Origin: Gammaproteobacteria bacterium
GTDB taxonomy: Bacteria; Pseudomonadota; Gammaproteobacteria; SG8-11
Assembly: GCA_016200445.1 (NCBI GenBank)
Contig: JACQEQ010000301.1
Span: 1 to 37,363 of the forward strand
DNA: 37,363 bases
Direction of reading: 5' to 3'
Under the pieces are notes generated by a model. The model ran no database searches. It had not been told where the DNA came from and saw nothing but the letters and a program-made list of their open reading frames with translations. The translations under genes and the position numbers were made by a program. This document shows, in pieces, positions 10,586-31,703 of the stretch (within the stretch, counting starts at the first letter, position 1; every line of letters begins with the position of its first letter).

Positions 10586-10744
10586 GAGCTTCCCGGCGTT
10601 TGCTTCTGCGCAATAATTCTCCGTGTATTTGCGAATATTCCCGTAGCCGCTTGCCGCGTAGTTTAGCGCTGATCGCCGCGTGCTTGGTGAGTTTGCGTCG
10701 GCGTATGTATTGTTCGGCTTACTTCCTACACGGAGGATGCTCTC

Positions 10745-11251
10745 ATGAACACCAATACGATCCGCTCCGTAGCGGTTTTCGTCATGCTGTCGGCCGCCGG
10801 CACGTCGCTATACGCCGCCGATAACCCGGCGTTTATGAAATTTCATGCCAAGGGTGACTTTGCCACGGTGTTGTCAAACGTAAAACAAGCGTTGGAGACG
10901 GCGCAATTTGTTATCAGCGCCGAGGAAAATCTTTCCAAGGGGCTGGAGAAAAACAAGCAGTTATTTCCGGAAGGAACGTGGAATAGCATCGGTTTTGACA
11001 ACGTTACCGCCGTGCATTTTTGCTCGCTGGTATTTAATCAGGAGGTGTTCAATATCAACATGGATTGGACCATCTTGTGCCCGTACAAATTGTCGATTTA
11101 CAGCATGAAGAAAGCACCGCAAGACATTACCGTGATCATGCAGCGCCCGACCTTTCAGCTTGCGCAAGACCCGCACCCTAAAGCGAAAGAGATCGGCAAG
11201 AAAATGGAAGATCGTATCGTCAATGCTATCAAGGATGGCTTGGCTCGCTAG
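10745..11251 (+). CDS. DUF302-like periplasmic protein
   Basis: A signal peptide is present. The pattern FCSLVFNQEVFNINMDWTILCPYKLSIY is compatible with DUF302. Confidence 0.5.
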   Translation: MNTNTIRSVAVFVMLSAAGTSLYAADNPAFMKFHAKGDFATVLSNVKQALETAQFVISAEENLSKGLEKNKQLFPEGTWNSIGFDNVTAVHFCSLVFNQEVFNINMDWTILCPYKLSIYSMKKAPQDITVIMQRPTFQLAQDPHPKAKEIGKKMEDRIVNAIKDGLAR

Positions 11252-15716: not shown

Positions 15717-15841
15717 GTTATTCGGGTGGGAGTTTAGATTCACTGCGATTGACAACGCCGCTGCACTAGCGCACCTTTTCGCGCCGTGCGTTGGGCATCC
15801 ATTTTACCCGCGAAAATTTCAGGAAAAGAAGACGGACCGCT

Positions 15842-17728
15842 ATGAGCAAAACTTACGACGCCGCCGCGATTGAAGTGCTGGTGGGTCTGGAGCCGGTGCG
15901 CAAGCGCCCGGGCATGTACACCCAGACCGAGCGGCCAAATCATCTGGCGCAGGAAGTCATCGACAACAGCGTGGACGAGGCGATGGCCGGTCACGCGAAG
16001 AACATCGACGTGGTGTTGTACAAAGACGGCTCGCTGCAAGTGGCCGACGACGGGCGCGGCATGCCGGTGGACCTGCACCCGGTCGAAAAAATCTCTGGCG
16101 TGGAAGTGATCCTCACGCGGCTGCACGCGGGCGGAAAATTTTCCAATTCCAATTATCAGTTCTCCGGCGGCTTGCACGGCGTGGGCGTGTCGGTGGTCAA
16201 TGCCTTGTCGAAGCGCCTGGAAGTGTGGATCAAGCGCAACGGTCAGGAATACCACATGACCTTCGGCGACGGTGCAAAAAAATCCGAACTCAAAGTGGTC
16301 GGCGAAGTCGGCAAGCGCAACACCGGCACGACGCTGCGCTTCTGGCCCGATCCTAAATATTTCGACTCGCCGAAAATCGCCGCGCCGAAGTTGAAACACG
16401 TGCTGCGCGCCAAGGCGGTGTTGTGCCCCGGCCTGAAGGTATCGTTTCTTGACGAAAACAGCGGCGAGAAAGACGAGTGGTTTTATGAATACGGCCTTCA
16501 AGATTATTTACTCAGCGAGCTGCACAACGTGCCAGTGCTGCCCGACGCGCCGTTCGTGGGCAGTTTCGCGGCGACCAACGAAGCCGTCGACTGGGCGCTG
16601 GTGTGGTTGCCGGAAGGCGGCGAACCGATTGCCGAAAGCTACGTGAATCTGATTCCGACCACTCAGGGTGGCACTCACACCAACGGTTTACGCACCGGCT
16701 TAACCGAAGCGCTGCGCGAATTTTGCGAGACGCGCAGCCTGCTACCGCGCGGTATCAAGCTCGCACCGGAAGACGTGTGGGAAAAAGTCAGTTACGTTTT
16801 ATCGGTCAAGATGAGCGACCCGCAATTCTCTGGACAAACCAAAGAGCGATTGACCTCGCGCGAAACCGCCGCGTTTGTATCCGGCGTGGTGAAAGACACG
16901 CTCGGCATCTGGCTCAATCAAAATCTCGACCAGGGCGAGCGCATCGCCGAGTTGGCGATCAACAGCGCGCAAAACCGCCTGCGTGCCGAAAAGAAAGTGG
17001 TGCGCAAAAAAGTCACCAGCGGACCCGCGTTGCCGGGCAAGCTGGCGGATTGTTCGTCGCAGGATTTATCGCGCACCGAATTGTTTTTGGTGGAAGGCGA
17101 CTCGGCGGGCGGCTCGGCCAAGCAGGCGCGCGACCGCGAGTTCCAGGCGATCATGCCGTTGCGCGGAAAAATCCTGAACACCTGGGAAGTCGATGCCAAC
17201 GAAGTGCTGGGCTCGCAGGAAGTGCACGACATTTCGGTGGCAATCGGCGTCGACCCCGGCTCGGACGATTTGAAAGGCCTGCGTTACGGCAAGATTTGCA
17301 TTCTCGCCGATGCCGATAACGATGGGGCGCATATCGCGACATTATTGTGCGCGCTGTTCGTCAGGCACTTCCGGCCCATGGTCGCGGCAGGCCACGTGTA
17401 TATCGCGATGCCGCCGCTGTTCCGCATCGACGTCGGCAACCATGTGTTCTATGCGCTCGACGACGCCGAGAAACAAGGCGTACTCGACCGCATCGCCGCA
17501 GAAAAACTGCGCGGCAAAGTCAACGTCGTGCGCTTCAAAGGTCTGGGCGAAATGAACCCGCCGCAACTGCGCGAAACCACCATCTCGCCCGACACGCGCC
17601 GCTTGGTGCAACTCACCATCGAACCCGGCGACGACACCAACCAGCTGATGGACATGCTGCTGGGTAAAAAACGCGCCTCCGACCGCAAGGCGTGGTTGGA
17701 GCAGAAGGGCGATTTGGCGACGGTGTGA
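15842..17728 (+). CDS. parE: DNA topoisomerase IV subunit B
   Basis: MSKTYDAAAIEVLVGLEPVRKRPGMYT, the GHKL ATPase, TOPRIM EGDSAGG, PLRGKILN and DADNDGAHI. At 628 aa it lacks the GyrB-type insertion. Confidence 0.9.
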   Translation: MSKTYDAAAIEVLVGLEPVRKRPGMYTQTERPNHLAQEVIDNSVDEAMAGHAKNIDVVLYKDGSLQVADDGRGMPVDLHPVEKISGVEVILTRLHAGGKFSNSNYQFSGGLHGVGVSVVNALSKRLEVWIKRNGQEYHMTFGDGAKKSELKVVGEVGKRNTGTTLRFWPDPKYFDSPKIAAPKLKHVLRAKAVLCPGLKVSFLDENSGEKDEWFYEYGLQDYLLSELHNVPVLPDAPFVGSFAATNEAVDWALVWLPEGGEPIAESYVNLIPTTQGGTHTNGLRTGLTEALREFCETRSLLPRGIKLAPEDVWEKVSYVLSVKMSDPQFSGQTKERLTSRETAAFVSGVVKDTLGIWLNQNLDQGERIAELAINSAQNRLRAEKKVVRKKVTSGPALPGKLADCSSQDLSRTELFLVEGDSAGGSAKQARDREFQAIMPLRGKILNTWEVDANEVLGSQEVHDISVAIGVDPGSDDLKGLRYGKICILADADNDGAHIATLLCALFVRHFRPMVAAGHVYIAMPPLFRIDVGNHVFYALDDAEKQGVLDRIAAEKLRGKVNVVRFKGLGEMNPPQLRETTISPDTRRLVQLTIEPGDDTNQLMDMLLGKKRASDRKAWLEQKGDLATV

Positions 17729-17856: not shown

Positions 17857-19236
17857 ATGAAAATACCGCTTTCTCCGCCGGAACTGAGCGAGCTATTGCC
17901 GAAGCTCGGTATGACGCAGCTGCACCGTGTTTTGAGCCGGGAGTTGGGTCCGCTGGTGGGTGGCCGGTATTTCCACTGGGACGAACTGCGCCACCGCACC
18001 CCGCCCGCCGGGCTGTCGCACGAGGCTTGGTGGGCGGGAATCAAAATCGCCCGTCAAGGGTTGCTGCGCGCGCTGCCGTTTCAAGACAAACTCAAACGGC
18101 CGGTATTGTTCGGGATGCCCGACCCGGTGTTGCGCGTGTTGCACGGGATTGACCGGCGCGTGGGCGGTGCGGTGACGATGGAGAAGCCGATGGTCTCCAG
18201 CGAAGACCGCGACCGCTACCTCGTCAGCTCGCTCATCGAGGAAGCCATTACTTCCAGTCAGCTCGAAGGTGCGGCCACCACACGCGAGGAAGCCAAAGCC
18301 ATGCTACGCAGCGGCCGCAAACCACGCGACCGCAGTGAACGGATGATCGTCAATAACTTCCGCGTAATGGAACATATTCGCGAGCTGCGCGATGAGGCGC
18401 TGACTCCGAAGATCGTGTTGGCCATGCACCGTATCGTGAGTCAAGACACGCTCGACGATCCGAGCGCCGTTGGCCGGTTACGCCGCCCGAATGAGAAGAT
18501 CATCGTCATGGACGCGACACGTTCGCACGTGCTGCACGAACCGCCACCGGCCAGCACATTGCCACAGCGTCTAGAACGTTTGTGTGCATTCGCCAACGAG
18601 ACCGATGGCGAGCCGTTCGTGCATCCGGTGGTTCGCGCCGTTCTCCTACACTACATGGTCGGTTACGACCATCCGTTCGTCGACGGCAACGGCCGCACGG
18701 CGCGCGCTTTGTTCTATTGGAGCTTGGCGCGTTCCGGCTACTGGCTCATGGAATACATTTCGATATCGAGTTTATTGAAGCAGGCGCCCGCGCAGTACGG
18801 GCGTGCCTACCTGCACAGCGAGACCGACGATAGCGACACCACCTATTTTATCTTGCACCAGCTATCAGTCATCGAGCGAGCCATCAAGGCGCTGTACGAA
18901 TACCTTGCGCACAAAACCTCCGAGCAGCGTTCGGCGGAGCGCCTGTTGCGTCACGCACCGCGCCTCGCCGATCAGTTTAATTATCGCCAGACCGCGCTCT
19001 TGACCCATGCGCTCAAACATCCGGGTCATGACTATACGGTGGAAAGCCACCGCCGCTCGCACCGGGTAACGCTCCAGACCGCGCGTACGGATTTGCTGAC
19101 GCTGGCGAAATTGAATCTCCTGGAGCAGGGAAAACGCTCCCGGGCACTGGTGTTTTACGCGCCCGCAGACTTGCGCGCGCGCATCGAGTCGGCCGCGCGC
19201 ATACCCACGCGCCAGCGGCGCGGAACCCCTAAATGA
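17857..19236 (+). CDS. Fic family protein (class II: internal inhibitory motif plus canonical Fic motif), with a C-terminal wHTH-like tail
   Basis: The Fic motif HPFVDGNGRTARAL fits HxFx(D/E)GNGRxxR. The motif SSQLEG, fitting (S/T)xxxE(G/N), lies upstream of the core. Confidence 0.85.
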   Translation: MKIPLSPPELSELLPKLGMTQLHRVLSRELGPLVGGRYFHWDELRHRTPPAGLSHEAWWAGIKIARQGLLRALPFQDKLKRPVLFGMPDPVLRVLHGIDRRVGGAVTMEKPMVSSEDRDRYLVSSLIEEAITSSQLEGAATTREEAKAMLRSGRKPRDRSERMIVNNFRVMEHIRELRDEALTPKIVLAMHRIVSQDTLDDPSAVGRLRRPNEKIIVMDATRSHVLHEPPPASTLPQRLERLCAFANETDGEPFVHPVVRAVLLHYMVGYDHPFVDGNGRTARALFYWSLARSGYWLMEYISISSLLKQAPAQYGRAYLHSETDDSDTTYFILHQLSVIERAIKALYEYLAHKTSEQRSAERLLRHAPRLADQFNYRQTALLTHALKHPGHDYTVESHRRSHRVTLQTARTDLLTLAKLNLLEQGKRSRALVFYAPADLRARIESAARIPTRQRRGTPK

Positions 19237-19697: not shown

Positions 19698-19903
19698 TTC
19701 CGTGCAGCCTGAATTGAAAAACAGAAATCAAGCAAGTGTTGCCTGGATGAGGCGAAGCGAAATTCAGGAAAAGGGCGAATCAGCGTAACAATGCAGGTGG
19801 GAATTTTGAAAGTGAATTCTCAAAAACCAACGGACTATTTCGGATGTGTGATTCTTGAAATCGCGCTCGCTTGGATCGATGCCGAATCGGTCAAGCACGC
19901 TCC

Positions 19904-22774
19904 ATGAGCTTCACCGACTACCACGCTAAATATTTCGCCTATGAGCTAACCAAGCGCTGCGCACCCGACAGCGTCGAAAAACTCGCCGGAGCGGTCGCCA
20001 GCGCTCAAGTCGATCTGAATCCGCATCAGGTCGATGCCGCGTTGTTCGCGTTCCAATCCCCGCTGTCCAAGGGTGCGTTGCTTGCGGACGAAGTCGGGCT
20101 GGGCAAAACCATCGAAGCGGGTCTGGTTCTGTCGCAGAAATGGGCAGAGCGTAAACGGTGCATGCTGGTCATCACTCCGTCCAATTTGCGTACGCAGTGG
20201 TATCAAGAATTGACCGAAAAGTTTTTTCTGCCGTGCCGCATTCTTGAAGCCAAGTCATACAATGCCGTAATCAAGCTTGCGCAGCTTCGTCCATTCGAGG
20301 CGCCTGAGATCATCATTTGTTCCTACCAGTTCGCCAAGAGCAAGGCGGACGACGTGCATGCGATGCCGTGGGATCTGGTGGTCATCGACGAAGCGCATCG
20401 CCTGCGCAATGTGTACAAACCTGGCAACGTGATCGCAAACACGCTGAAGTCGGCGCTCGCGGGCAAGGACAAACTTCTTCTCACCGCGACGCCATTGCAG
20501 AACTCGCTGCTTGAGCTGTTTGGTTTAGTAAGTTTTATCGACGAACACACGTTTGGTGACTTAAAAAGTTTTCGCGAGCAATTCACTAATCTGAATCAAG
20601 AACAGGTGTTTCATACGCTCAAGGCGCGGCTCAAGCCGATTTGCCATCGGACCTTACGTCGACAAGTGACCGCATACATTCCCTTCACCAAGCGCCTGCC
20701 GCTGGTGGAGGAATTCACGCCGGAGGAAAGCGAAGACAGGCTTTACGAGGTCGTCTCCGGTTATCTGCAACGAGATAACCTGCAAGCGTTACCCGCAAGT
20801 CAACGCTCACTAATGACGCTCGTGCTGCGTAAGTTACTCGCCTCGTCGACCTTCGCCATCGCAGGCGCGTTAACGTCGATATCCAACCGCCTCAAAGCCA
20901 AGCTGCGCAAACACGAGCCCACCGAGCCGCTTGCGGACGAGCTAGACCGTGACTACGAATCCCTCGAAGAAACCGCCGAGGAATGGAGTGACGATGAGCC
21001 CGCCGAAGTGCTCACCGCCGTCGACCGTGCCGCCATCGAAATGGAAATTGTCGACCTCGATGCCTTCGCCGAACTTGCCGCGTCCATCGACCACAACGCC
21101 AAGGGCCGGGCGTTACTCAAAGTGCTGGAAATTGCCTTCGCCAAAGCGCGTGAACTCGGCGGCGCAGAGAAAGCCATCATCTTCACCGAATCGCGCCGCA
21201 CGCAAAGCTACCTGCTGCGCCTGCTGGCCGATAGTCAGTGGAGCGAAGGCATTGTGCTGTTCAACGGCACCAATACCGATGAACGCTCAAAGCAAATTTA
21301 TGCGCAATGGATCGAGCGCCATCAAGGCAGTGATCGCGTCATCGGTTCGCGCAGTGCCGACATGCGTTCGGCGCTAGTAGATTATTTTCGCGAGCAAGGT
21401 CGCATCATGATCGCGACTGAAGCCGGTGCAGAAGGCATTAACCTCCAGTTCTGTTCGTTGGTGGTGAACTACGATCTGCCGTGGAACCCGCAACGCATCG
21501 AGCAGCGCATCGGCCGCTGCCATCGCTACGGCCAGAAGCACGATGTCGTGGTCGTGAACTTTCTCAATCGCAATAACGCTGCTGACCAACGCGTGTTTGA
21601 ATTGTTGTCGGAAAAATTTCAGCTCTTCGAAGGTGTCTTCGGCGCCAGCGACGAAGTGCTCGGCGCGATTGAGTCCGGCGTGGATTTCGAAAAGCGCATC
21701 GCAGCCATCTACCAGACCTGTCGCAAGCCCGACGAAATCCAATCCGCGTTCAACCAGCTCCAGCTCGAACTCAGCCTGGAGATCAACGCGTCGATGACGC
21801 GCACGCGCCGGAACTTGTTGGAACATTTCGACGACGAAGTACGCGACAAGCTCAAGGTGCGCGACGAGGCCGCGAAAGCCTTTCTCAGTCGCTTCGAACG
21901 CTTGCTCATGCAACTCACGCGGCACGAGTTGGGCGACAACGCAACATTTCGAGACGACTACGCTTTTCTTCTCAAGTCCTGTCCGTATTCCGTCGACATT
22001 CCGCTAGGCTTGTACGAACTGCCGCGCCGCTCCGGCGAGACGCATCTTTACCGTCTGAATCACCCGCTCGCCGAAGCGCTGTTAGCGCAGGCGAAAGCGC
22101 GCGACCTGCCGCCCGCTGAAGTTCATTTCGATTACGGACTGCATGACGGCAAGGTCACGCTGTTGGAGCCCCTCATCGGCAAGTCCGGTTGGCTCACGCT
22201 CACGCTGTTTAGCGTCGAGTCGCTGAATCAGGCGGAGGATCACCTTGTCGTTGCCGCAACCACCACTGATGGCGACGCGCTTGATGAAGAAATCGCAACG
22301 CGCCTGCTTACCCTGCCGGGTCGCGTGAACGGTACAACACCAGCAACGTCTGCCCCCTCAGCATTGGAACAACAAACCGCGCAACGCCAAGCGGTCATCC
22401 AACGCAACATCTCGGAGCGCAATGCGCGCTTCTTTGAAGCTGAGGCGGAAAAACTCGATGGCTGGGCTGACGATCTCAAAGTGGGTTTGGAGCGTGAAAT
22501 CAAAGAGCTCGACCGCCAGATTAAAGAAGCGCGGCGCGCAGCGACCACCGCGCTAACGTTGGAAGAAAAGCTCGCAGGGCAGAAACAGATCAAAGCCGTT
22601 GAAGCGCAACGCAACCAGAAACGGAGAACGCTGTTCGACGCGCAAGACCAAGTAGACAATCAACGTGACGAGCTCATTGCTCAAATCGAAGGCAAATTGA
22701 CCCAATCGACCCGGATCGAGACGCTCTTCACGTTGCGCTGGACTGTTGTGTCTAGCCGCGAAACCAGCGCATGA
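19904..22774 (+). CDS. SNF2-family helicase with a long C-terminal extension ending in a coiled coil
   Basis: LADEVGLGKTIEAG (I), VVIDEAHRLRN (II), LLLTATPLQNSLLELFGL (III), ATEAGAEGINLQ (V), WNPQRIEQRIGRCHRYGQ (VI). The C-terminal 350 aa lack recognised motifs and end in a charged heptad-like region (EAEAEKLDGWADDLKVGLEREIKELDRQIKEARR...). Confidence 0.85.
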   Translation: MSFTDYHAKYFAYELTKRCAPDSVEKLAGAVASAQVDLNPHQVDAALFAFQSPLSKGALLADEVGLGKTIEAGLVLSQKWAERKRCMLVITPSNLRTQWYQELTEKFFLPCRILEAKSYNAVIKLAQLRPFEAPEIIICSYQFAKSKADDVHAMPWDLVVIDEAHRLRNVYKPGNVIANTLKSALAGKDKLLLTATPLQNSLLELFGLVSFIDEHTFGDLKSFREQFTNLNQEQVFHTLKARLKPICHRTLRRQVTAYIPFTKRLPLVEEFTPEESEDRLYEVVSGYLQRDNLQALPASQRSLMTLVLRKLLASSTFAIAGALTSISNRLKAKLRKHEPTEPLADELDRDYESLEETAEEWSDDEPAEVLTAVDRAAIEMEIVDLDAFAELAASIDHNAKGRALLKVLEIAFAKARELGGAEKAIIFTESRRTQSYLLRLLADSQWSEGIVLFNGTNTDERSKQIYAQWIERHQGSDRVIGSRSADMRSALVDYFREQGRIMIATEAGAEGINLQFCSLVVNYDLPWNPQRIEQRIGRCHRYGQKHDVVVVNFLNRNNAADQRVFELLSEKFQLFEGVFGASDEVLGAIESGVDFEKRIAAIYQTCRKPDEIQSAFNQLQLELSLEINASMTRTRRNLLEHFDDEVRDKLKVRDEAAKAFLSRFERLLMQLTRHELGDNATFRDDYAFLLKSCPYSVDIPLGLYELPRRSGETHLYRLNHPLAEALLAQAKARDLPPAEVHFDYGLHDGKVTLLEPLIGKSGWLTLTLFSVESLNQAEDHLVVAATTTDGDALDEEIATRLLTLPGRVNGTTPATSAPSALEQQTAQRQAVIQRNISERNARFFEAEAEKLDGWADDLKVGLEREIKELDRQIKEARRAATTALTLEEKLAGQKQIKAVEAQRNQKRRTLFDAQDQVDNQRDELIAQIEGKLTQSTRIETLFTLRWTVVSSRETSA

Positions 22775-23006
22775 AGGAGCCTGTGATGACAGATACCCAC
22801 TATCCTTGTCCGAACCGCCGGAAGGCATCGCGGGGAAGTCGTTGCAGGAGATTGAGGGTTGGGTCTTCCGGCGCTTGAAGATGATTCTGAATTGTAGCCG
22901 GGATGTCGTGCCCACGTTTAAGCTTGGGGTAACAGTGACGAATGGCTATACAAATGAAATATCGCACCTTCAATGGAAAGAAAGATTTGCTGAGGTATGC
23001 CCATGA
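22746..23006 (+). CDS. Possible short ORF translationally coupled to the ATPase (unknown function)
   Basis: The open frame ends in an ATGA overlap with the ATPase start (23003-23006). The start codon is unclear and no family was recognised. Confidence 0.25.
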   Translation: MCLAAKPAHEGACDDRYPLSLSEPPEGIAGKSLQEIEGWVFRRLKMILNCSRDVVPTFKLGVTVTNGYTNEISHLQWKERFAEVCP

Positions 23007-24103
23007 TTAAACGAGTATCCAATTCAAACCAGCTTTCAAAGCTGACATTGCATGGCTACAAGTCGATTGCATCGTGCGAGATTGAATTAGGCAAGCTCAA
23101 TGTTTTGATCGGCGCTAACGGTGCGGGAAAGTCGAATTTCATCGGCTTTTTCAGGCTAATAAGCAAGATTCTGGATCAGCAGCTGCAATCGGCTGTTGGA
23201 ACTTCTGGCGGCCCTGATGCCATGCTGCATTTTGGACGAAAAAAAACGGAAGAACTGAATGCCGAGCTCTATTTCGGTAACAATGGGTACAAATTCAAGC
23301 TGAAACCCACTCAAGACAATCGGATGATGTTTTCGCGCGAATGCCTGTGGTGGAACATGAGTGGTGATTGGCAGCCGCATTCCGGACATTTCGAGTCCTA
23401 TCTGGAAGCGCAAAAGGGAAAAACCAATATCTGGGGCTACGTCGTTCCACCCATGCGAAGCTGGCGTGCCTATCACTTCCATGACACCAGTGACAGCGCT
23501 ACGGTCAAACAGGTGCACGGCATTAACGACAATGAATATCTGCGTGCAGATGCCCGTAATCTGGCGGCATTTCTTTTCCGCCTGAAAAACCACCATGAGG
23601 CGCATTACCGCCGCATCGTTAAATCCATTCAGTTGGTAGCGCCGTTTTTTGGTGACTTCCATCTACGTCCGGCGGTGGATAACAAGGAAAAAATTCAACT
23701 TGAATGGACCGAGGCCGGGCAAGACGTGCCGTTCTCTGCCAGCGCGCTGTCGGACGGCACGCTTCGCTTTATCTGTTTAGCCACCGTGCTATTGCAACCC
23801 GAGCAGTTCATGCCAGCGTCCATTTTGATTGATGAGCCGGAATTAGGATTACACCCCTACGCTATTGCTGTTCTCGGCGCATTGATGAAATCGACTGCCG
23901 AAAAACATCAACTGATTGTCTCCACGCAGTCCGTTGAGTTGGTTAACGAATTTGAGGCAGACGATCTGATTGTGGTGGATAAGGAAAATGGTGCGTCCAC
24001 GTTCAAGCGACCCGACACCGCCGCCCTCACCGAATGGCTGAACGATTTCAGTCTCGGCGAGTTGTGGAAGAAAAATCTTCTGGGCGGGAGACCGGCGCGA
24101 TGA
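23003..24103 (+). CDS. ABC/SMC-like AAA ATPase (AAA_21/AAA_15 type)
   Basis: Walker A GANGAGKSNF, LSDGTLRF, Walker B ILIDEPELGLHP, and STQS. The N-terminus has the L.L.GYKSI pattern typical of OLD/ABC-like defence ATPases. The gene is AT-richer than the flanking SNF2 and res genes by eye. Confidence 0.8.
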   Translation: MIKRVSNSNQLSKLTLHGYKSIASCEIELGKLNVLIGANGAGKSNFIGFFRLISKILDQQLQSAVGTSGGPDAMLHFGRKKTEELNAELYFGNNGYKFKLKPTQDNRMMFSRECLWWNMSGDWQPHSGHFESYLEAQKGKTNIWGYVVPPMRSWRAYHFHDTSDSATVKQVHGINDNEYLRADARNLAAFLFRLKNHHEAHYRRIVKSIQLVAPFFGDFHLRPAVDNKEKIQLEWTEAGQDVPFSASALSDGTLRFICLATVLLQPEQFMPASILIDEPELGLHPYAIAVLGALMKSTAEKHQLIVSTQSVELVNEFEADDLIVVDKENGASTFKRPDTAALTEWLNDFSLGELWKKNLLGGRPAR

Positions 24104-24756
24104 AGCGCATGTATTTGCTGGCGGAAGGTCAGACAGAAGAAACCTTCGTAAGAGAATTGCTCGCGCCGCACTATGCTCGAAGTGGCTTGTTCATTACGCC
24201 AATCATTGTGCGCACCAGCCCCGGCCACAAAGGTGGCGTGGTGAGCTACGCCAAGGTCAAGCCGCAAATCATCCGCCTGTGTAAACAGGACGCAGCCGCC
24301 TATGTGTCCACGTTGTTTGATCTATACGCCTTGCCCGATGATTTTCCGGGCAAGACTTCAGCGGCATACCAATCAAAAAATATCGGCGCGCAAAAAGCAG
24401 CATTTCTCGAAGCCGCGCTCGCACAGGACGTCAACGAACCCAACTTCATTCCTTTTCTCATGGTGCATGAGTTCGAAGCCTTATTGTTCGTGCAGCCCGA
24501 GAAATTCGCCGTGTGGACGGACAAAGCCGATGTGGTGTCCTCGTTAGGCAAGGTTGCACAGAAACACCAGACACCGGAAGACATTAATGACAAGCCGCAA
24601 ACTGCTCCATCAAAGCGGATTCTGGACCTGATGCCTGAATACGAGAAACCGTTTCATGGCCCGCTGATCGCTTGCGATATTGGCCTGGATGCCATGCGCC
24701 AATCCTGCCCGCATTTTGAGGCCTGGCTTCAGAGGCTGGAAGCGCTGGCTGCATGA
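24100..24756 (+). CDS. DUF4276 family protein (Toprim-like partner of the ATPase)
   Basis: The ATG overlaps the ATPase stop (ATGA at 24100-24103). Sequence: MKRMYLLAEGQTEETFVRELL ... LFDLYALP ... VHEFEALLF. Confidence 0.7.
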   Translation: MKRMYLLAEGQTEETFVRELLAPHYARSGLFITPIIVRTSPGHKGGVVSYAKVKPQIIRLCKQDAAAYVSTLFDLYALPDDFPGKTSAAYQSKNIGAQKAAFLEAALAQDVNEPNFIPFLMVHEFEALLFVQPEKFAVWTDKADVVSSLGKVAQKHQTPEDINDKPQTAPSKRILDLMPEYEKPFHGPLIACDIGLDAMRQSCPHFEAWLQRLEALAA

Positions 24757-24780
24757 ACAATGAAGCAGTGAATCGTCGAA

Positions 24781-25909
24781 ATGAGTAAGAAAAAACTAGA
24801 ACTGACCTGGATCGGCAAGGAAACCCGGCCGAAGCTGGAGCCACGGATTTTGTTGGAGGATGCGGCGCGGTCGTATCACGCGAAATACAGGAGCGCGGGC
24901 GTCTCGCCCGCGCTCCAGGACATTTTCGACAACCGGCTGATCTTCGGCGACAACCTGCTGGCGCTGAAGGCGCTGGAGGCGGAGTTTGCGGGGAAGGTGA
25001 AGTGCGTGTTCATCGATCCGCCGTACAACACCGGCAGCGCCTTCACGCATTACGACGACGGGGTGGAGCATTCGATCTGGCTGTCGCTGATGCGCGACCG
25101 GCTGGAGATTATCCGGCGGTTGTTGTCGGAGGATGGTTCGCTGTGGATCACGATTGACGACAACGAGGCGCATTACCTGAAGGTGTTGTGCGATGAAGTG
25201 TTTGGGCGGGCGAATTTTGTTTCAACTGTTATCTGGCAAAAAAAATACGCACCGAAATCTGATTCCAAGTACTTTTCTGAATCGCATGATTTCGTATTGG
25301 TAATCGCCAAGCAGATTGATCGGTTTCAGCTTGGACGATTGCACAAGACAGAAAAGCAGACTGGTCGTTACACCAATCGAGACAACGACCCGCGTGGGTC
25401 TTGGAAGGCAAGTGACGTACTGCGGAATGAAGCACGGGATTACGCTATTTTTCCCGTGAAGTTACCTTCAGGGCGTGAGGTATGGCCGCCTTCTGGAACA
25501 AGCTGGAGATACACAAAGGAGAAGTTCGAAGAGCTGGTTGCCGATAATCGCATTTGGTTTGGTGTTGATGGCGATGCAAGACCGGCATACAAGCGATTTA
25601 TTTCGGAAGTGAGTGACACGATCCCAAGCACAACGATTTGGGGTTTTGACGAGGTTGGACATAACGACGAGTCGAAGAAAGAAATGCGAGCTATCTTTGG
25701 TGAGGATTTGTTCGCCACTCCAAAGCCGGAGAGATTGCTTCAGCGGGTTATCCAACTTGCTACCAACCCCAACGACCTCATCCTCGACTCCGAAGAAAAT
25801 TCCCAACGCGGTGTTGAAGCGCTGCGAGTGGGGTCATGACGACTACAGTTTGAAGGTGGAGAATCTGCCGCAGGCGGCGCCTAAGCCGGGGCAGGGGGAC
25901 TTATTTTGA
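24781..25909 (+). pseudogene. mod: Type III (beta-class N6/N4) DNA methyltransferase Mod, internally deleted
   Basis: Motif IV FIDPPYNTG and the pre-motif-I segment ATPKPERLLQRVIQLATNPNDLILDS are present. The FxGxG AdoMet motif that should follow is missing. The frame then runs into nonsense and stops at 25839. A C-terminal-looking fragment, KKIPNAVLKRCEWGHDDYSLKVENLP, continues in another frame to 25909. Confidence 0.65.
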
Positions 25910-25910
25910 T

Positions 25911-25993
25911 CCGCAGATTACGCAGATTTACACAGATTCAAAAACCAGAAACTGCCGTTGGGTTTAATCGGCGGAAATCTGCGAAATCTGTGG
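25911..25993. repeat. Left palindromic heptad-rich unit flanking the GxxExxY gene
   Basis: ccgcagattacgcagatttacacagattca ... aatcggcggaaatctgcgaaatctgtgg. The two halves are inverted copies built from CAGATT(T/A)-type heptads. Confidence 0.7.
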
Positions 25994-26005
25994 AGAAAGT
26001 TTCTT

Positions 26006-26458
26006 ATGAACAGGGATGAGCAAACTTTCGCAATTATCGGTGCGGCGATGGAGGTGCATCGGGAACTGGGTCATGGGTTCCTGGAAGCCGTTTACCAAGA
26101 GGCCCTTGCCCTGGAATTTACGGGCCGCCGGATTGTTTTCACGCGTGAAATCGAATTGCCCATTTTGTATCGAGGGCAACGACTGAACACGGGGTACCGC
26201 GCGGACTTTGTGTGTTTTGACGCGGTAGTTGTCGAGCTGAAAGCCCTGGACCGACTGACAACGAGGGAAGAGTCGCAGCTTATCAACTACCTCAAAGCCA
26301 GCGGCAAGGAGCGTGGGTTGTTGCTGAACTTTGGGAGCCGGAGCCTGGAATATAAAAGGATGATTTTTTCAAATCCGCAGATTACACGGATTTCCACAGA
26401 TTCATCTCAAGATAATCGGCGCGAATCTGCGCAATCTGCGGAAGGAGAAACTGGATGA
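26006..26458 (+). CDS. GxxExxY protein (PD-(D/E)XK-like small protein)
   Basis: [25 protein letters not shown] (GxxExxY), [26 protein letters not shown]...GLLLNFG. The C-terminal tail [10 protein letters not shown] is encoded by the right-hand repeat unit. Confidence 0.85.
26375..26441. repeat. Right palindromic heptad-rich unit flanking the GxxExxY gene
   Basis: ccgcagattacacggatttccacagattca ... aatcggcgcgaatctgcgcaatctgcgg. This is a direct copy of the unit at 25911-25993. Confidence 0.7.
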
Positions 26459-26511
26459 TTCGGGGGATAGGGTGTGGAACGATCACGCAGCCGTTTTATG
26501 AGAGGCAAGTT

Positions 26512-26736
26512 ATGAAGCTACAGATCGACGAAGAAGCGGATGCGCTGCACCTGCAATTGGTGGATGTGCCGGTGGTCGAGTCGGAGGAAGTGGCGCCCGG
26601 CGTGATCGTGGATTATGACGATGCCGATCAAGTGGTGGGTATTGAGGTGCTGCATTTATCGAAGCGGCCGCATCCGGTGAACCTGATGGATTTCCAATTC
26701 CTGACGAATCCACGGCGCGCGGTGGCGGGGAAATAA
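26512..26736 (+). CDS. DUF2283 domain protein
   Basis: MKLQIDEEADALHLQL...EEVAPGVIVDYDDADQVVGIEVLHLSKR. RBS gagagg lies upstream. Confidence 0.75.
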   Translation: MKLQIDEEADALHLQLVDVPVVESEEVAPGVIVDYDDADQVVGIEVLHLSKRPHPVNLMDFQFLTNPRRAVAGK

Positions 26737-29453: not shown

Positions 29454-31703
29454 ATGACTGACGAAACAAAAACCAACCCCGACGGTATCGAGCGTCAGCC
29501 GCTGCGCGCGTTCAGCGAGAAGGCGTATCTTGACTATTCGATGTACGTGATTCTGGATCGCGCGTTGCCGCATATCGGCGACGGCTTGAAGCCGGTGCAG
29601 CGGCGCATTGTTTATGCGATGAGCGAGCTGGGTTTGAAGGCCGGGAACAAATACAAAAAATCCGCGCGCACGGTCGGTGATGTGCTCGGCAAATTTCATC
29701 CGCATGGTGACTCGGCGTGTTACGAAGCGATGGTGTTGATGGCGCAGCCGTTTTCGTATCGCTATCCGCTGGTCGACGGGCAGGGCAACTGGGGATCGCC
29801 CGATGACCCCAAATCCTTCGCCGCGATGCGTTACACCGAATCGCGCTTGGCGAAATATGCCGAAGTGTTGCTCGCGGAGTTGGGGCAGGGCACGGTCGAT
29901 TGGGTGCCGAATTTCGACGGCACCATGGACGAGCCGTCGCTGTTGCCGGCGCGCTTGCCTAACGTGTTGTTGAACGGGACGACCGGCATCGCGGTCGGCA
30001 TGGCAACCGATATTCCGCCACATAACCTGCGCGAAGTCGCCGCAGCGTGTATTCACTTGATCGAAAATCCCAAAGCCACGGTCAGCGAGCTGTGTGAATT
30101 CGTGTTGGGGCCGGATTTCCCCACCGACGCGGAAATCATCACGCCGCGCCAAGAGCTGTTGGCGATGTATGAAACCGGTAACGGTTCGGTGCGCATGCGT
30201 GCGCGTTACGAAATTGAAGATGGCTGTGTGGTGCTGACGTCGCTGCCGCACCAGACCTCGGGCGCGAAAATCCTGGAGCAGATCGCGCAGCAGATGAATG
30301 CGAAGAAATTGCCGATGGTGGAAGACTTGCGCGACGAGTCCGACCACGAAAACCCGACGCGCCTGGTGATCGTGCCGCGTTCCAACCGCGTGGATTTGGA
30401 TGAATTGATGGGCCACCTGTTCGCGACCACCGACCTGGAACGCAGCTACCGTATCAACATGAACATGATCGGCTTGAACGGCCGCCCGCAGGTCAAGAAC
30501 CTACGCGACCTGTTGAGCGAGTGGCTGGAGTTCCGCATGTTGACGGTTCGCCGCCGCTTGCAGTGGCGGCTCGACAAGGTCAATGCGCGCTTGCACATCC
30601 TTGACGGTTTGCTGATCGCCTACCTGAACATCGACGAAGTGATTCGCATCATCCGCACCAACGACGAGCCCAAGCCGGTGTTGATGGCGCGTTTCAAGCT
30701 GAGCGACACGCAGGCCGAGGCGATTCTAGAACTCAAGCTGCGGCACCTCGCCAAGCTCGAAGAAATGCAGATTCGCACCGAGCAGAACGAGCTGGCCGAA
30801 GAACGCGACGAACTGCAAAAAATTCTGGATTCGGGTAAGCGGTTACGCACGCTAGTCAAAAAAGAAATTCAGGACGACATGAAAACCTACGGTGACGAAC
30901 GCCGTTCGCCCTTGGTCACACGTGCAATCGCCAAGGCCATCGACGAATCGACGCTGGTCGGTGCCGAGCCGGTAACGGTCATTTTGTCCGAAAAAGGCTG
31001 GGTGCGTTCCGCCAAAGGCCACGACATCGACGCGCTCGCGCTGCAATACAAAGCGGGCGACAGCTTTCGCGCAGCCGCCATCGGCAAGAGTAATCAGTCT
31101 GCGGTGTTCCTCGACTCCACCGGCCGTGCCTATACGTTGCCTGCGCACCAATTGCCATCGGCGCGCGGCCACGGCGAACCGCTGACCGGCTGGCTGAATC
31201 CGCCGCCGGGCGCAACCTTTGCGGGTGTCATGTTGGGTGTGCCGGAGCAGTTGTACCTGGTCGGCAGCGACGCGGGTTACGGCTTCGTCGCCAAGCTCGA
31301 AGACATGTCGACTAAAAATAAAAACGGTAAAGCCGTATTGAGCGTATCGGCAGGGAGTCGCGTCGTGGCACCTGCACCGATTTTCGATGTCGAAACCGAC
31401 CGCCTCGCCGCAGTCACCAACGACGGTCACATGCTGGTATTTGCAGTAAAAGACCTGCCTATGCTGGCAAAAGGCCGTGGCAATAAAATTATCGGTGTGT
31501 CGCCCAAGGACGACGAAGCGTTATTCGCGTTGCTGTCGATTCCAAAAGGCGGTGGCCTGACCATCTTCGCCGGCAAACAACACACCACGCTGAGTGCCAG
31601 CGAATTGAACGAGTACCAAGGCGAACGCGGACGACGCGGCAAGAAACTTCCGCGTGGCTATCAGAAGGTGGATCGCGTCGCGTTACTTCCTCCAGCATCG
31701 TGA
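29454..31703 (+). CDS. parC: DNA topoisomerase IV subunit A
   Basis: [33 protein letters not shown], the active-site [10 protein letters not shown], and a length of 749 aa. Confidence 0.9.

Follow-up and report, generated by a model that had tools for sequence, protein, structure and literature searches.

A pair of overlapping genes on a 37,363 bp contig is, by its profile matches, one further copy of HEC-01, a catalogued candidate anti-phage system. The contig comes from a metagenome-assembled genome (MAG) labelled Gammaproteobacteria bacterium; the whole contig is called the window below. The first gene of the pair encodes an ATP-binding cassette (ABC) ATPase, the second a DUF4276 protein (PF14103) that is predicted to be a Toprim-like nuclease. 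The pair is assigned to HEC-01 because both proteins give full-length matches to the PADLOC models, the ATPase to HEC-01A and its partner to HEC-01B. The two genes are adjacent and co-oriented, which is the layout that HEC-01 requires, and overlap by 4 nt. Many metagenomic relatives are about 70–90% identical to the pair in the window.

HEC-01 (Hma-embedded candidate 01) was defined in 2024 by Payne et al. as an ABC ATPase accompanied by a TOPRIM protein, and was found nested between the genes of Hma systems (10.1101/2024.01.29.577857). In the same study HEC-01B was described as having a metal-binding site in common with Burkholderia OLD. Among the system types of MAGs from cold seeps, HEC-01 ranks within the first 12 (PMC12881386). 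A 2025 study of Menshen placed DUF4276 in the Toprim superfamily and identified the Mad4 protein of MADS as a DUF4276 homologue (PMC12065111). The PARIS structure paper groups MADS3-4 and AbiL with OLD, Gabija and PARIS as systems composed of an ABC ATPase together with a TOPRIM protein (PMC11464382). The idea of an ATPase-Toprim partnership is already published and the pair at 23003-24756 is conceptually nothing new. A preliminary description of the window had called pairs of this kind little characterised, which is true of their biochemistry but not of their classification, the pair being already catalogued as HEC-01 and DUF4276 already published as Toprim.

The window shares with the published HEC-01 loci the same two genes, the same predicted combination of ABC ATPase and TOPRIM protein and the same nesting inside a larger defence system. 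It differs in its carrier, which is a DrmD-like SNF2 helicase with Type III Mod and Res rather than Hma.

The gene pair

Both open reading frames (ORFs) are real genes and not chance ORFs, because their products match the Pfam families AAA_21 and DUF4276. They lie where the preliminary description had placed them: the SNF2 helicase gene (19871-22774) precedes them, and a Type III mod gene, beginning at 24781, comes after. Two starts are possible for the ATPase gene, at 22997 and 23003, and its stop codon is the TGA at 24101-24103. The start at 23003 is favoured because a GAGG motif is found 7 nt upstream of it and because DNA similarity to relatives begins there in several loci. The ATG of the DUF4276 gene at 24100 overlaps the TGA of the ATPase gene in the sequence ATGA, in agreement with the 4-nt overlap described earlier. 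This overlap is kept in 74 of 79 related loci (ATGA in 71, GTGA in 3), which supports translational coupling of the two genes.

The guanine plus cytosine (GC) content of the ATPase gene is 50.2% and that of the DUF4276 gene 53.4%, compared with 56.4% for the SNF2 helicase gene, 57.5% for res and 55.5% for the window. The pair had been described as richer in AT than its neighbours; this is true with respect to the helicase and res, although the difference is modest and the truncated mod (52.7%) and a nearby PDDEXK_3 gene (50.9%) are also low.

The ATPase

The ATPase matches the PADLOC HEC-01A model (PDLC04175) with an E-value of 1.5e-156 and a score of 519 bits, residues 9–364 of the protein aligning with positions 4–362 of the 363-position profile. 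In Pfam it matches AAA_21 over the full profile (E 1.4e-26), and also AAA_15 and SMC_N. The Walker A and Walker B motifs noticed in the preliminary description are both present. Walker A, GANGAGKSNF, occupies residues 37–46 (GANGAGKS is encoded at 23111-23134), and the Walker B motif and D-loop, ILIDEPELGLHP, residues 274–285 (ILIDEPE is encoded from 23822). The ABC signature LSDGT is at residues 249–253 (23747-23761). At the position of the H-loop the protein has STQS (residues 307–310, 23921-23932), with glutamine where histidine is usual.

Among proteins of known structure the best relative by sequence is Thermus OLD (6p74, E 5e-6). Others include the ATPase of an energy-coupling factor (ECF) transporter, GajA (9e-4) and the heads of SMC proteins, and AriA has an E-value of 0.27. 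Together with the AAA_21, AAA_15 and SMC_N matches and the signature motif, the position of Thermus OLD as best solved relative supports the view that the partner of the DUF4276 gene is an ABC-type ATPase. The PADLOC families that follow HEC-01A are mad3 (7.8e-28), AriA (8.6e-26), AbiLi (2e-20), Old (3.5e-18) and GajA (2.2e-14). In NCBIfam the ATPase matches antiphage_MADS3 (E 9.6e-30) with 104 bits, where the curated cutoff is 420, and RecF (6e-6) with 25.6 bits in the Walker A region alone, against a cutoff of 172 bits.

The DUF4276 protein

The second protein matches Pfam DUF4276 over the full profile (E 1.8e-60) and the PADLOC HEC-01B model PDLC04188 with an E-value of 2.5e-87, residues 1–217 aligning with positions 12–227 of the 230-position profile. 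HEC-01B models were the only matches in PADLOC, and a scan of NCBIfam gave no match of any kind. The 150 best representatives of the family are all stand-alone proteins of at most 240 aa, and no fusion of an ATPase with DUF4276 was seen among them.

The acidic motif that had been noticed at the N-terminus is present (MKRMYLLAEGQTEE). Residues E9 and E13 within it, as well as D74, E124 and E126, are invariant among 81 DUF4276 sequences with identities down to 47%; Y76, E160, K183 and R200 are also invariant or nearly so, Y76 being replaced by Phe in one sequence. E9 follows a predicted strand at residues 2–8, at the end of strand 1, and E13 lies four residues further on, as does E404 in Burkholderia OLD (BpOLD). 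D74 closes the predicted strand at 68–74 (strand 3), and E124-x-E126 follows strand 4. The metal ligands of BpOLD are E400, E404, D455/D457 and T506/E508 (PMC6755086). By position, E9, E13, D74, E124 and E126 would correspond to E400, E404, D455 and T506-E508, and a two-metal site is plausibly conserved in the DUF4276 protein.

An AlphaFold2 model of the protein, built with 27 homologues, is confident, with a pLDDT score (predicted local distance difference test) of 88.7 and a predicted template modelling (pTM) score of 0.87. It contains alternating strands and helices followed by a helical C-terminal half. The top match of this model in the PDB by Foldseek is the C-terminal region of Xanthomonas OLD, comprising Toprim and helical parts (6njx, E 7.3e-3, probability 0.91, TM-score 0.39), and in BFVD it is an RloB-like protein (E 6e-3, probability 0.97). 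The DUF4276 protein is accordingly a predicted Toprim-like nuclease. The earlier suggestion of a Toprim-like fold thus has a structural match behind it, although a weak one, and no counterpart among sequence profiles.

A two-gene cassette, probably mobile

When 185,579 species genomes were scanned with a pattern, at least 540 loci emerged, the best 80 of which were examined (79 with upstream sequence; locus numbers are preceded by L) and their neighbouring genes summarised by Pfam. Most of these 80 belong to Beta- and Gammaproteobacteria and Cyanobacteria, while Alphaproteobacteria, Thermodesulfobacteriota and Cytophagales are represented by single MAGs. The ATPase gene lies directly 5' of the DUF4276 gene in 79 of 79 loci. 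DNA similarity between the window and the 80 loci is confined to approximately 23003-24757, so that the conserved unit is exactly two ORFs. A search for flanking sequence, inverted repeats or a promoter that the copies of the cassette might share found none. The family is large: clustering at 90% identity gives at least 8000 clusters for the ATPase, and at 50% identity there are 4378 for DUF4276.

The genomic surroundings of the cassette vary independently of it. The SNF2-pair-Mod layout of the window is found in only eight of the 80 loci (L001, L004, L014, L025, L031, L032, L035 and L036). Res follows in seven of these, and L031 ends before that point. In L044 a Mod gene is downstream of the pair. 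Three further loci (L012, L018 and L024) contain an intact pair, and all that is left of the carrier around it are pieces from the C-terminus of SNF2, the N-terminus of Mod and Res; in them the carrier has decayed and the cargo has survived. About 66 of the 80 loci have no relative of SNF2, Mod or Res nearby. Outside the carrier loci the nearest genes are unrelated and often have housekeeping functions, such as hom/thrC, sucrose synthase, chorismate synthase, a release factor and ssb. The closest relative on a long contig, in Nitrotoga HW29 (ATPase 90% identical), is preceded by a DUF2130 gene and followed by a Wadjet operon. Nesting in a restriction-modification (R-M) locus, which the preliminary description had emphasised, applies to the window, where the operon is R-M-like, but its mod gene is broken and the majority of copies are found elsewhere than in such loci.

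The family is found on 13 of 72,556 plasmid records, and no homologue is present in 50,697 phage records; a life on phages and satellites like that of PARIS is unsupported by this search. The pair is intact in the three loci with remnants of the carrier and, unless the assembly is in error there, beside a broken mod in the window, which argues that it is maintained independently of the carrier. These distributions show an autonomous cassette, which is probably mobile horizontally.

DUF2130 genes recur next to the pair. In L004 (7616-8911) and L161 (8712-10004) such a gene precedes it, with its end overlapping the start of the ATPase gene, and L004 has a second DUF2130 3' fragment (10707-10907) just 3' of the pair. 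In the window, the 228-bp spacer between the SNF2 and ATPase genes contains a short stretch resembling a DUF2130 3' end (Table 1). The evidence for this remnant is weak. By tblastn it matches the DUF2130 protein encoded ahead of the pair in L161 and L004 (16 identities in 28 residues, E 0.011), and blastn finds matches to it in the cargo slot of L082, L143 and L112. The remnant would fit descent from an arrangement of DUF2130 and the pair like that of L004, and such traces around the pair may reveal how the cassette moved.

Relationship to other ATPase-Toprim systems

The pair belongs to none of PARIS, OLD/Gabija and MADS, although it has features in common with each of them. The preliminary description had proposed a split module like OLD or PARIS inside an R-M locus; in kind this is supported, in the combination of an ABC ATPase with a Toprim-like partner, in their coupling and in their nesting in an R-M-like operon.

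In MADS an AAA_21-type ABC ATPase is likewise followed by a DUF4276-type protein in a methylation-based defence operon (10.1101/2023.03.30.534895), and mad3/MAD3 is the best named match of the window ATPase outside HEC-01. The score is far below the MAD3 cutoff, however, and the pair occurs alone in most genomes. No other mad gene, including the mandatory MAD6, MAD7 and MAD8, was found in PADLOC scans of 19 ORFs of the window.

PARIS is also split into an ABC ATPase, the proposed sensor and scaffold, and a small Toprim-type nuclease, the effector that is released, and both ATPases belong to the AAA_15/21 radiation. The differences are that the PADLOC match of AriA to the window ATPase is partial and falls in two stretches, with solved AriA a distant relative (see above), that the partner is DUF4276 and shows no match to DUF4435 (AriB), that the window ATPase lacks about 100 aa of the length of solved AriA (chains of 464 aa), and that the family of the pair has no members in the phage collection searched.

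OLD and GajA combine an ABC ATPase with a Toprim nuclease, and Thermus OLD and GajA are solved relatives of the window ATPase. The E..xxx..E, D and ExE pattern of the DUF4276 protein appears to parallel the ligands of BpOLD. In OLD and GajA the two parts are fused, whereas here they are separate polypeptides, and the pair has D-x-Y for DxD and glutamine for the histidine of the H-loop. OLD class 2 and Gabija, with GajB, differ further in that no UvrD domain is found by the pair, whose neighbours are by Pfam an SNF2 helicase and a Type III mod.

RloB and AbiL provide another parallel, in which a small Toprim-like protein and an AAA_21 ATPase are nested in R-M operons, in their case of Type I. 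An RloB-like protein is the top BFVD match of the DUF4276 model, as described above, and AbiLi is among the PADLOC families matched by the window ATPase. RloB nonetheless belongs to a different Pfam family (PF13707) and shows no match to DUF4276 at the level of sequence.

Proposed function and alternatives

We consider it likely that the pair is at once a copy of HEC-01, an autonomous mobile cassette and a system that works in the manner of OLD, Gabija and PARIS. Under this reading the start/stop overlap would lead to production of the ABC ATPase (HEC-01A) in a fixed ratio with a Toprim-type, metal-dependent nuclease (HEC-01B). By analogy with the systems above, the two proteins would form a complex in which the ATPase holds or gates the nuclease and serves as the sensor of infection. 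A phage-derived cue might change the nucleotide state or the assembly of the ATPase and so license the nuclease, which would cut nucleic acid (DNA or tRNA) and stop the phage from replicating, perhaps with the sacrifice of the cell in an abortive response. What the present analysis shows is that the genes are real, coupled and members of the HEC-01 family, that the cassette has sharp boundaries and is independent of its genomic context, and that the acidic residues are conserved; complex formation, nuclease activity, sensing, the identity of cue and substrate and a defence phenotype are inferred from the related systems.

Several observations weigh against this reading. When a representative HEC-01 was put into E. 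coli MG1655 deltaRM, it protected against none of the phages of the panel, and HEC-01 associates little with other defence systems (10.1101/2024.01.29.577857). Enrichment among defence genes, which the preliminary description had led one to expect, was not seen in our survey either: the immediate neighbours in the 80-locus sample gave no defence-island signal, housekeeping genes being common among them. The Toprim likeness of the DUF4276 protein is weak, no Foldseek match of its model reaching an E-value of 1e-3 or below. Pfam at E-values up to 10 returns DUF4276 alone, with no bridge to Toprim, DUF4435 or RloB, and the DUF4276 family profile finds no chain among PDB sequences at E-values up to 10. 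The canonical DxD motif reads D74-L-Y76, with Tyr at position 76 in 80 of 81 sequences and Phe in one. The motif that defines Toprim is on this evidence half present and the DUF4276 subfamily of the pair is a variant, because DxD is reported in the DUF4276 domains of Menshen (PMC12065111). In the ATPase the H-loop glutamine is invariant in 76 of 76 aligned family members, where the OLD alignment has STHS, and ATP hydrolysis may therefore be slow, altered or unlike that of OLD and PARIS. A structure prediction of the ATPase from 24 homologues (79–92% identical) had a pLDDT of 45.9 and was uninformative on assembly. The weak structural matches nonetheless point at the expected families, OLD and RloB, and give the predicted Toprim fold weak support. 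In favour of a role in defence, one HEC-01 that had been picked at random from a cold-seep genome made E. coli B resistant to at least one of the phages T4, T5 and T7 (PMC12881386), and the related mad3 and mad4 are needed for defence by MADS.

Two alternatives tie the pair to its carrier. The pair may be a functional part of a methylation system, as Mad3 and Mad4 are in MADS, acting as effector or regulator while the host methyltransferase spares self-DNA. In P. aeruginosa MADS, defence needs mad3 as well as mad4, and loss of mad5 is tolerated only when mad2 or mad3 is deleted with it (10.1101/2023.03.30.534895). The closest named ATPase model after HEC-01A is mad3/MAD3 in both PADLOC and NCBIfam, and the pair lies on the strand of the host genes, is closely spaced with them and has no site of its own that resembles a promoter. 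This role is nevertheless improbable, as the carrier genes are missing from the surroundings of most copies, the pair is missing from the 80 closest SNF2-Mod-Res loci, whose slot is empty or filled with other cargo, the pair is intact although mod has lost its half that binds S-adenosylmethionine (AdoMet), and, beyond the low MAD3 score, PADLOC finds no mad match among the 17 other ORFs of the window. Alternatively, in line with the anti-anti-restriction idea of the preliminary description, the pair might guard the R-M system, as PrrC does for EcoprrI, keeping silent as long as SNF2/Mod/Res is intact and firing when a phage anti-restriction protein like Ocr or Stp disables it. Embedding in the same slot does recur, in the eight loci described above and as remnants of the layout in three, the slot elsewhere holds mostly ABC ATPases and Abi-type cargo, and there is precedent in PARIS, Gabija and PrrC, which are triggered by anti-restriction proteins (10.1101/2024.01.29.577857). 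We regard this too as unlikely, since most copies stand alone beside unrelated genes, the guarded system is already broken at mod in the window and no sign of physical or genetic dependence on the carrier was seen. The survey of genomic contexts argues against both proposals as general explanations, though embedded copies might still act as guards. A more elaborate form, to which we give little credence, is that the widespread SNF2 and Type III genes are a dedicated platform that recruits ABC-ATPase sensors such as HEC-01 to guard R-M. The variant D-x-Y Toprim nuclease would be released once a phage anti-restriction protein has disabled the R-M complex, and the ATPase, with its H-loop glutamine, would act as a slow switch. 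If true, this would extend the logic of PrrC and EcoprrI to Type III-like systems and would explain why such cassettes keep landing in the slot between SNF2 and Mod.

The remaining alternatives do without a role in defence. A selfish module resembling addiction or toxin-antitoxin systems, in which the ATPase holds a nuclease toxin and the pair, rather than being dedicated to defence against phages, stabilises the island along with itself, would account for an intact pair among decaying host genes (mod in the window, and L012, L018 and L024). It would also suit a precise two-ORF cassette at scattered insertion sites with GC content below that of its flanks. Pfam annotates AAA_21 as a putative AbiEii toxin, Type IV toxin-antitoxin domain, and one phage screen was negative. 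Addiction modules are typically enriched on plasmids and phages. The pair is rare on the former and absent from the records of the latter, one phage assay was positive, and the relatives MAD3/4, PARIS, OLD and Gabija are bona fide defences; together these points make such a module very unlikely. Least probable of all, to an extreme degree, is a housekeeping pair for DNA repair analogous to RecF (an ABC ATPase) and RecR (a Toprim protein). The weak N-terminal RecF match speaks for it, yet that match is restricted to the Walker A region and far below the RecF cutoff, the distribution of the pair is patchy, its location is variable across phyla with cassette-like transfer, and the neighbours in the slot are defence genes.

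Few candidate defence systems are as abundant in environmental genomes as HEC-01, and the two phage tests of it disagree. The present analysis provides constraints for studies of HEC-01 in the form of the cassette boundaries, the 4-nt coupling, the candidate catalytic set E9/E13/D74/E124/E126, the H-loop glutamine and the independence of the host locus. It also provides a natural series of loci in which the slot is empty, is filled with other cargo, or holds the pair in a decayed host.

The carrier and its cargo slots

The helicase upstream of the pair matches Pfam SNF2-rel_dom (3.2e-34) and Helicase_C, and PADLOC DrmD with an E-value of 1e-204; against NCBIfam DISARM_DrmD_b it scores 686 bits, below the cutoff of 950. 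Res matches PADLOC REase_III (1e-214) and Pfam ResIII (5e-19), and relatives align with it end to end over residues 1–889. The carrier was considered as Hma, and rejected because the helicase matches HmaA at 3e-47 as against 1e-204 for DrmD and because Res and Mod match R-M models alone among those listed. DISARM was rejected because no DrmA, DrmB or DrmC was found and the DrmD_b score is below cutoff, and MANTIS because the MANTIS paper concerns a different system.

The 80 closest SNF2 helicase loci (L081-L160) were surveyed for the carrier. The three-gene system of SNF2, Type III Mod and Res spans Proteobacteria, Verrucomicrobiota, Acidobacteriota, Nitrospirota, Planctomycetota, Bacteroidota and others, and a close copy of the pair is present in none of these 80 loci. 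The distance from SNF2 to Mod could be measured in 55 loci; it is 8–198 bp in four, in which the slot is empty, and 1.1–5.9 kb in 51. The 98 ORFs found in this slot include 24 SMC_N/AAA_21-type ATPases, 21 AIPR, 4 DUF2130, 4 Schlafen-AlbA, 3 SIR2, 3 distant DUF4276 and 2 GmrSD proteins, an AbiE pair and a Piwi protein. The distance from Mod to Res is bimodal, either -2 to about 180 bp or 0.35 to 2.6 kb. The carrier has two variable cargo slots, SNF2-Mod and Mod-Res, and the pair in the window occupies the first, in the manner that Payne et al. described for other carriers. Their survey of embedding covered Hma, BREX, DISARM and Type I R-M (10.1101/2024.01.29.577857), and the SNF2 and Type III class is outside it. 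That SNF2 and Type III R-M loci are carriers of cargo is a worthwhile side point of this analysis. The pair is probably co-transcribed with the carrier and not dependent on it.

Table 1. Features of the pair and its surroundings in the window.
Feature	Position	Strand	Evidence
HEC-01A, ABC-type (AAA_21) ATPase, 366 aa	23003..24103	+	PADLOC, Pfam, motif conservation in 76 family members
HEC-01B, DUF4276 protein, 218 aa, predicted Toprim-like nuclease	24100..24756	+	Pfam, PADLOC, AlphaFold2, Foldseek
ATGA start/stop overlap of the ATPase and DUF4276 genes	24100..24103	+	sequence; kept in related loci
Shine-Dalgarno-like GAGG, 7 nt 5' of ATPase ATG 23003	22992..22995	+	sequence
Shine-Dalgarno-like GGGAG, 9 nt 5' of DUF4276 ATG	24086-24090	+	sequence
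Invariant acidic codons of the DUF4276 gene	E9 24124-24126; E13 24136-24138; D74 24319-24321; E124 24469-24471; E126 24475-24477	+	81 sequences
Short remnant like a DUF2130 3' end, in the SNF2-ATPase spacer	22821..22904	+	weak
Host gene 1, DrmD-like SNF2 helicase, apparently intact	19871..22774	+	Pfam, PADLOC, NCBIfam
Host gene 2, Type III mod with internal out-of-frame deletion	24781..25909	+	comparison with full-length relatives
Mod-Res cargo slot: PDDEXK_3/GxxExxY gene (25958-26458) and DUF2283 (26455-26736)	25958..26736	+	Pfam, NCBIfam
Host gene 3, Type III Res (helicase-nuclease), apparently intact, 894 aa	26737..29421	+	PADLOC, Pfam

The broken mod gene and the surrounding island

Full-length relatives of Mod have 547–588 aa. 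In the window the N-terminal part of the protein ends ...NPNDLILDS near 25795, and in relatives the next segment is motif I (FAGSGTT). About 190 codons are gone, among them the AdoMet-binding motifs and most of the C-terminal half; the missing segment runs FAGSGTT...NLTL in relatives. The last 35 or so codons of Mod (KKIPNAVLKRCEWGHDDYSL...) survive in another frame, which ends at 25909. Unless this is an error in the assembly of the MAG, the R-M system of the window is probably non-functional.

The second cargo slot follows the mod remnant. Its PDDEXK_3 gene matches NCBIfam GxxExxY (5.7e-42) and is bracketed by two copies of a hairpin-forming repeat, one of about 100 nt at 25893-25994 and one of about 85 nt at 26357-26442; the gene and its repeats have the look of a short insertion directly behind the mod remnant. 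The DUF2283 gene overlaps the stop of the PDDEXK_3 gene and is directly 5' of res. The same adjacency of DUF2283 and res, with 79% identity, is found in two Nitrospira loci, L112 (16450-16683) and L139 (20189-20419).

The SNF2 helicase gene, HEC-01, mod, the PDDEXK_3 and DUF2283 genes and res, together with a Fic/SoFic gene (17857-19236), form an island of about 11.7 kb. This island lies between a GyrB/ParE-like gene (15791-17728) and a GyrA/ParC-like gene (29454-31703), which presumably represent a chromosomal parE-parC pair split by the insertion.

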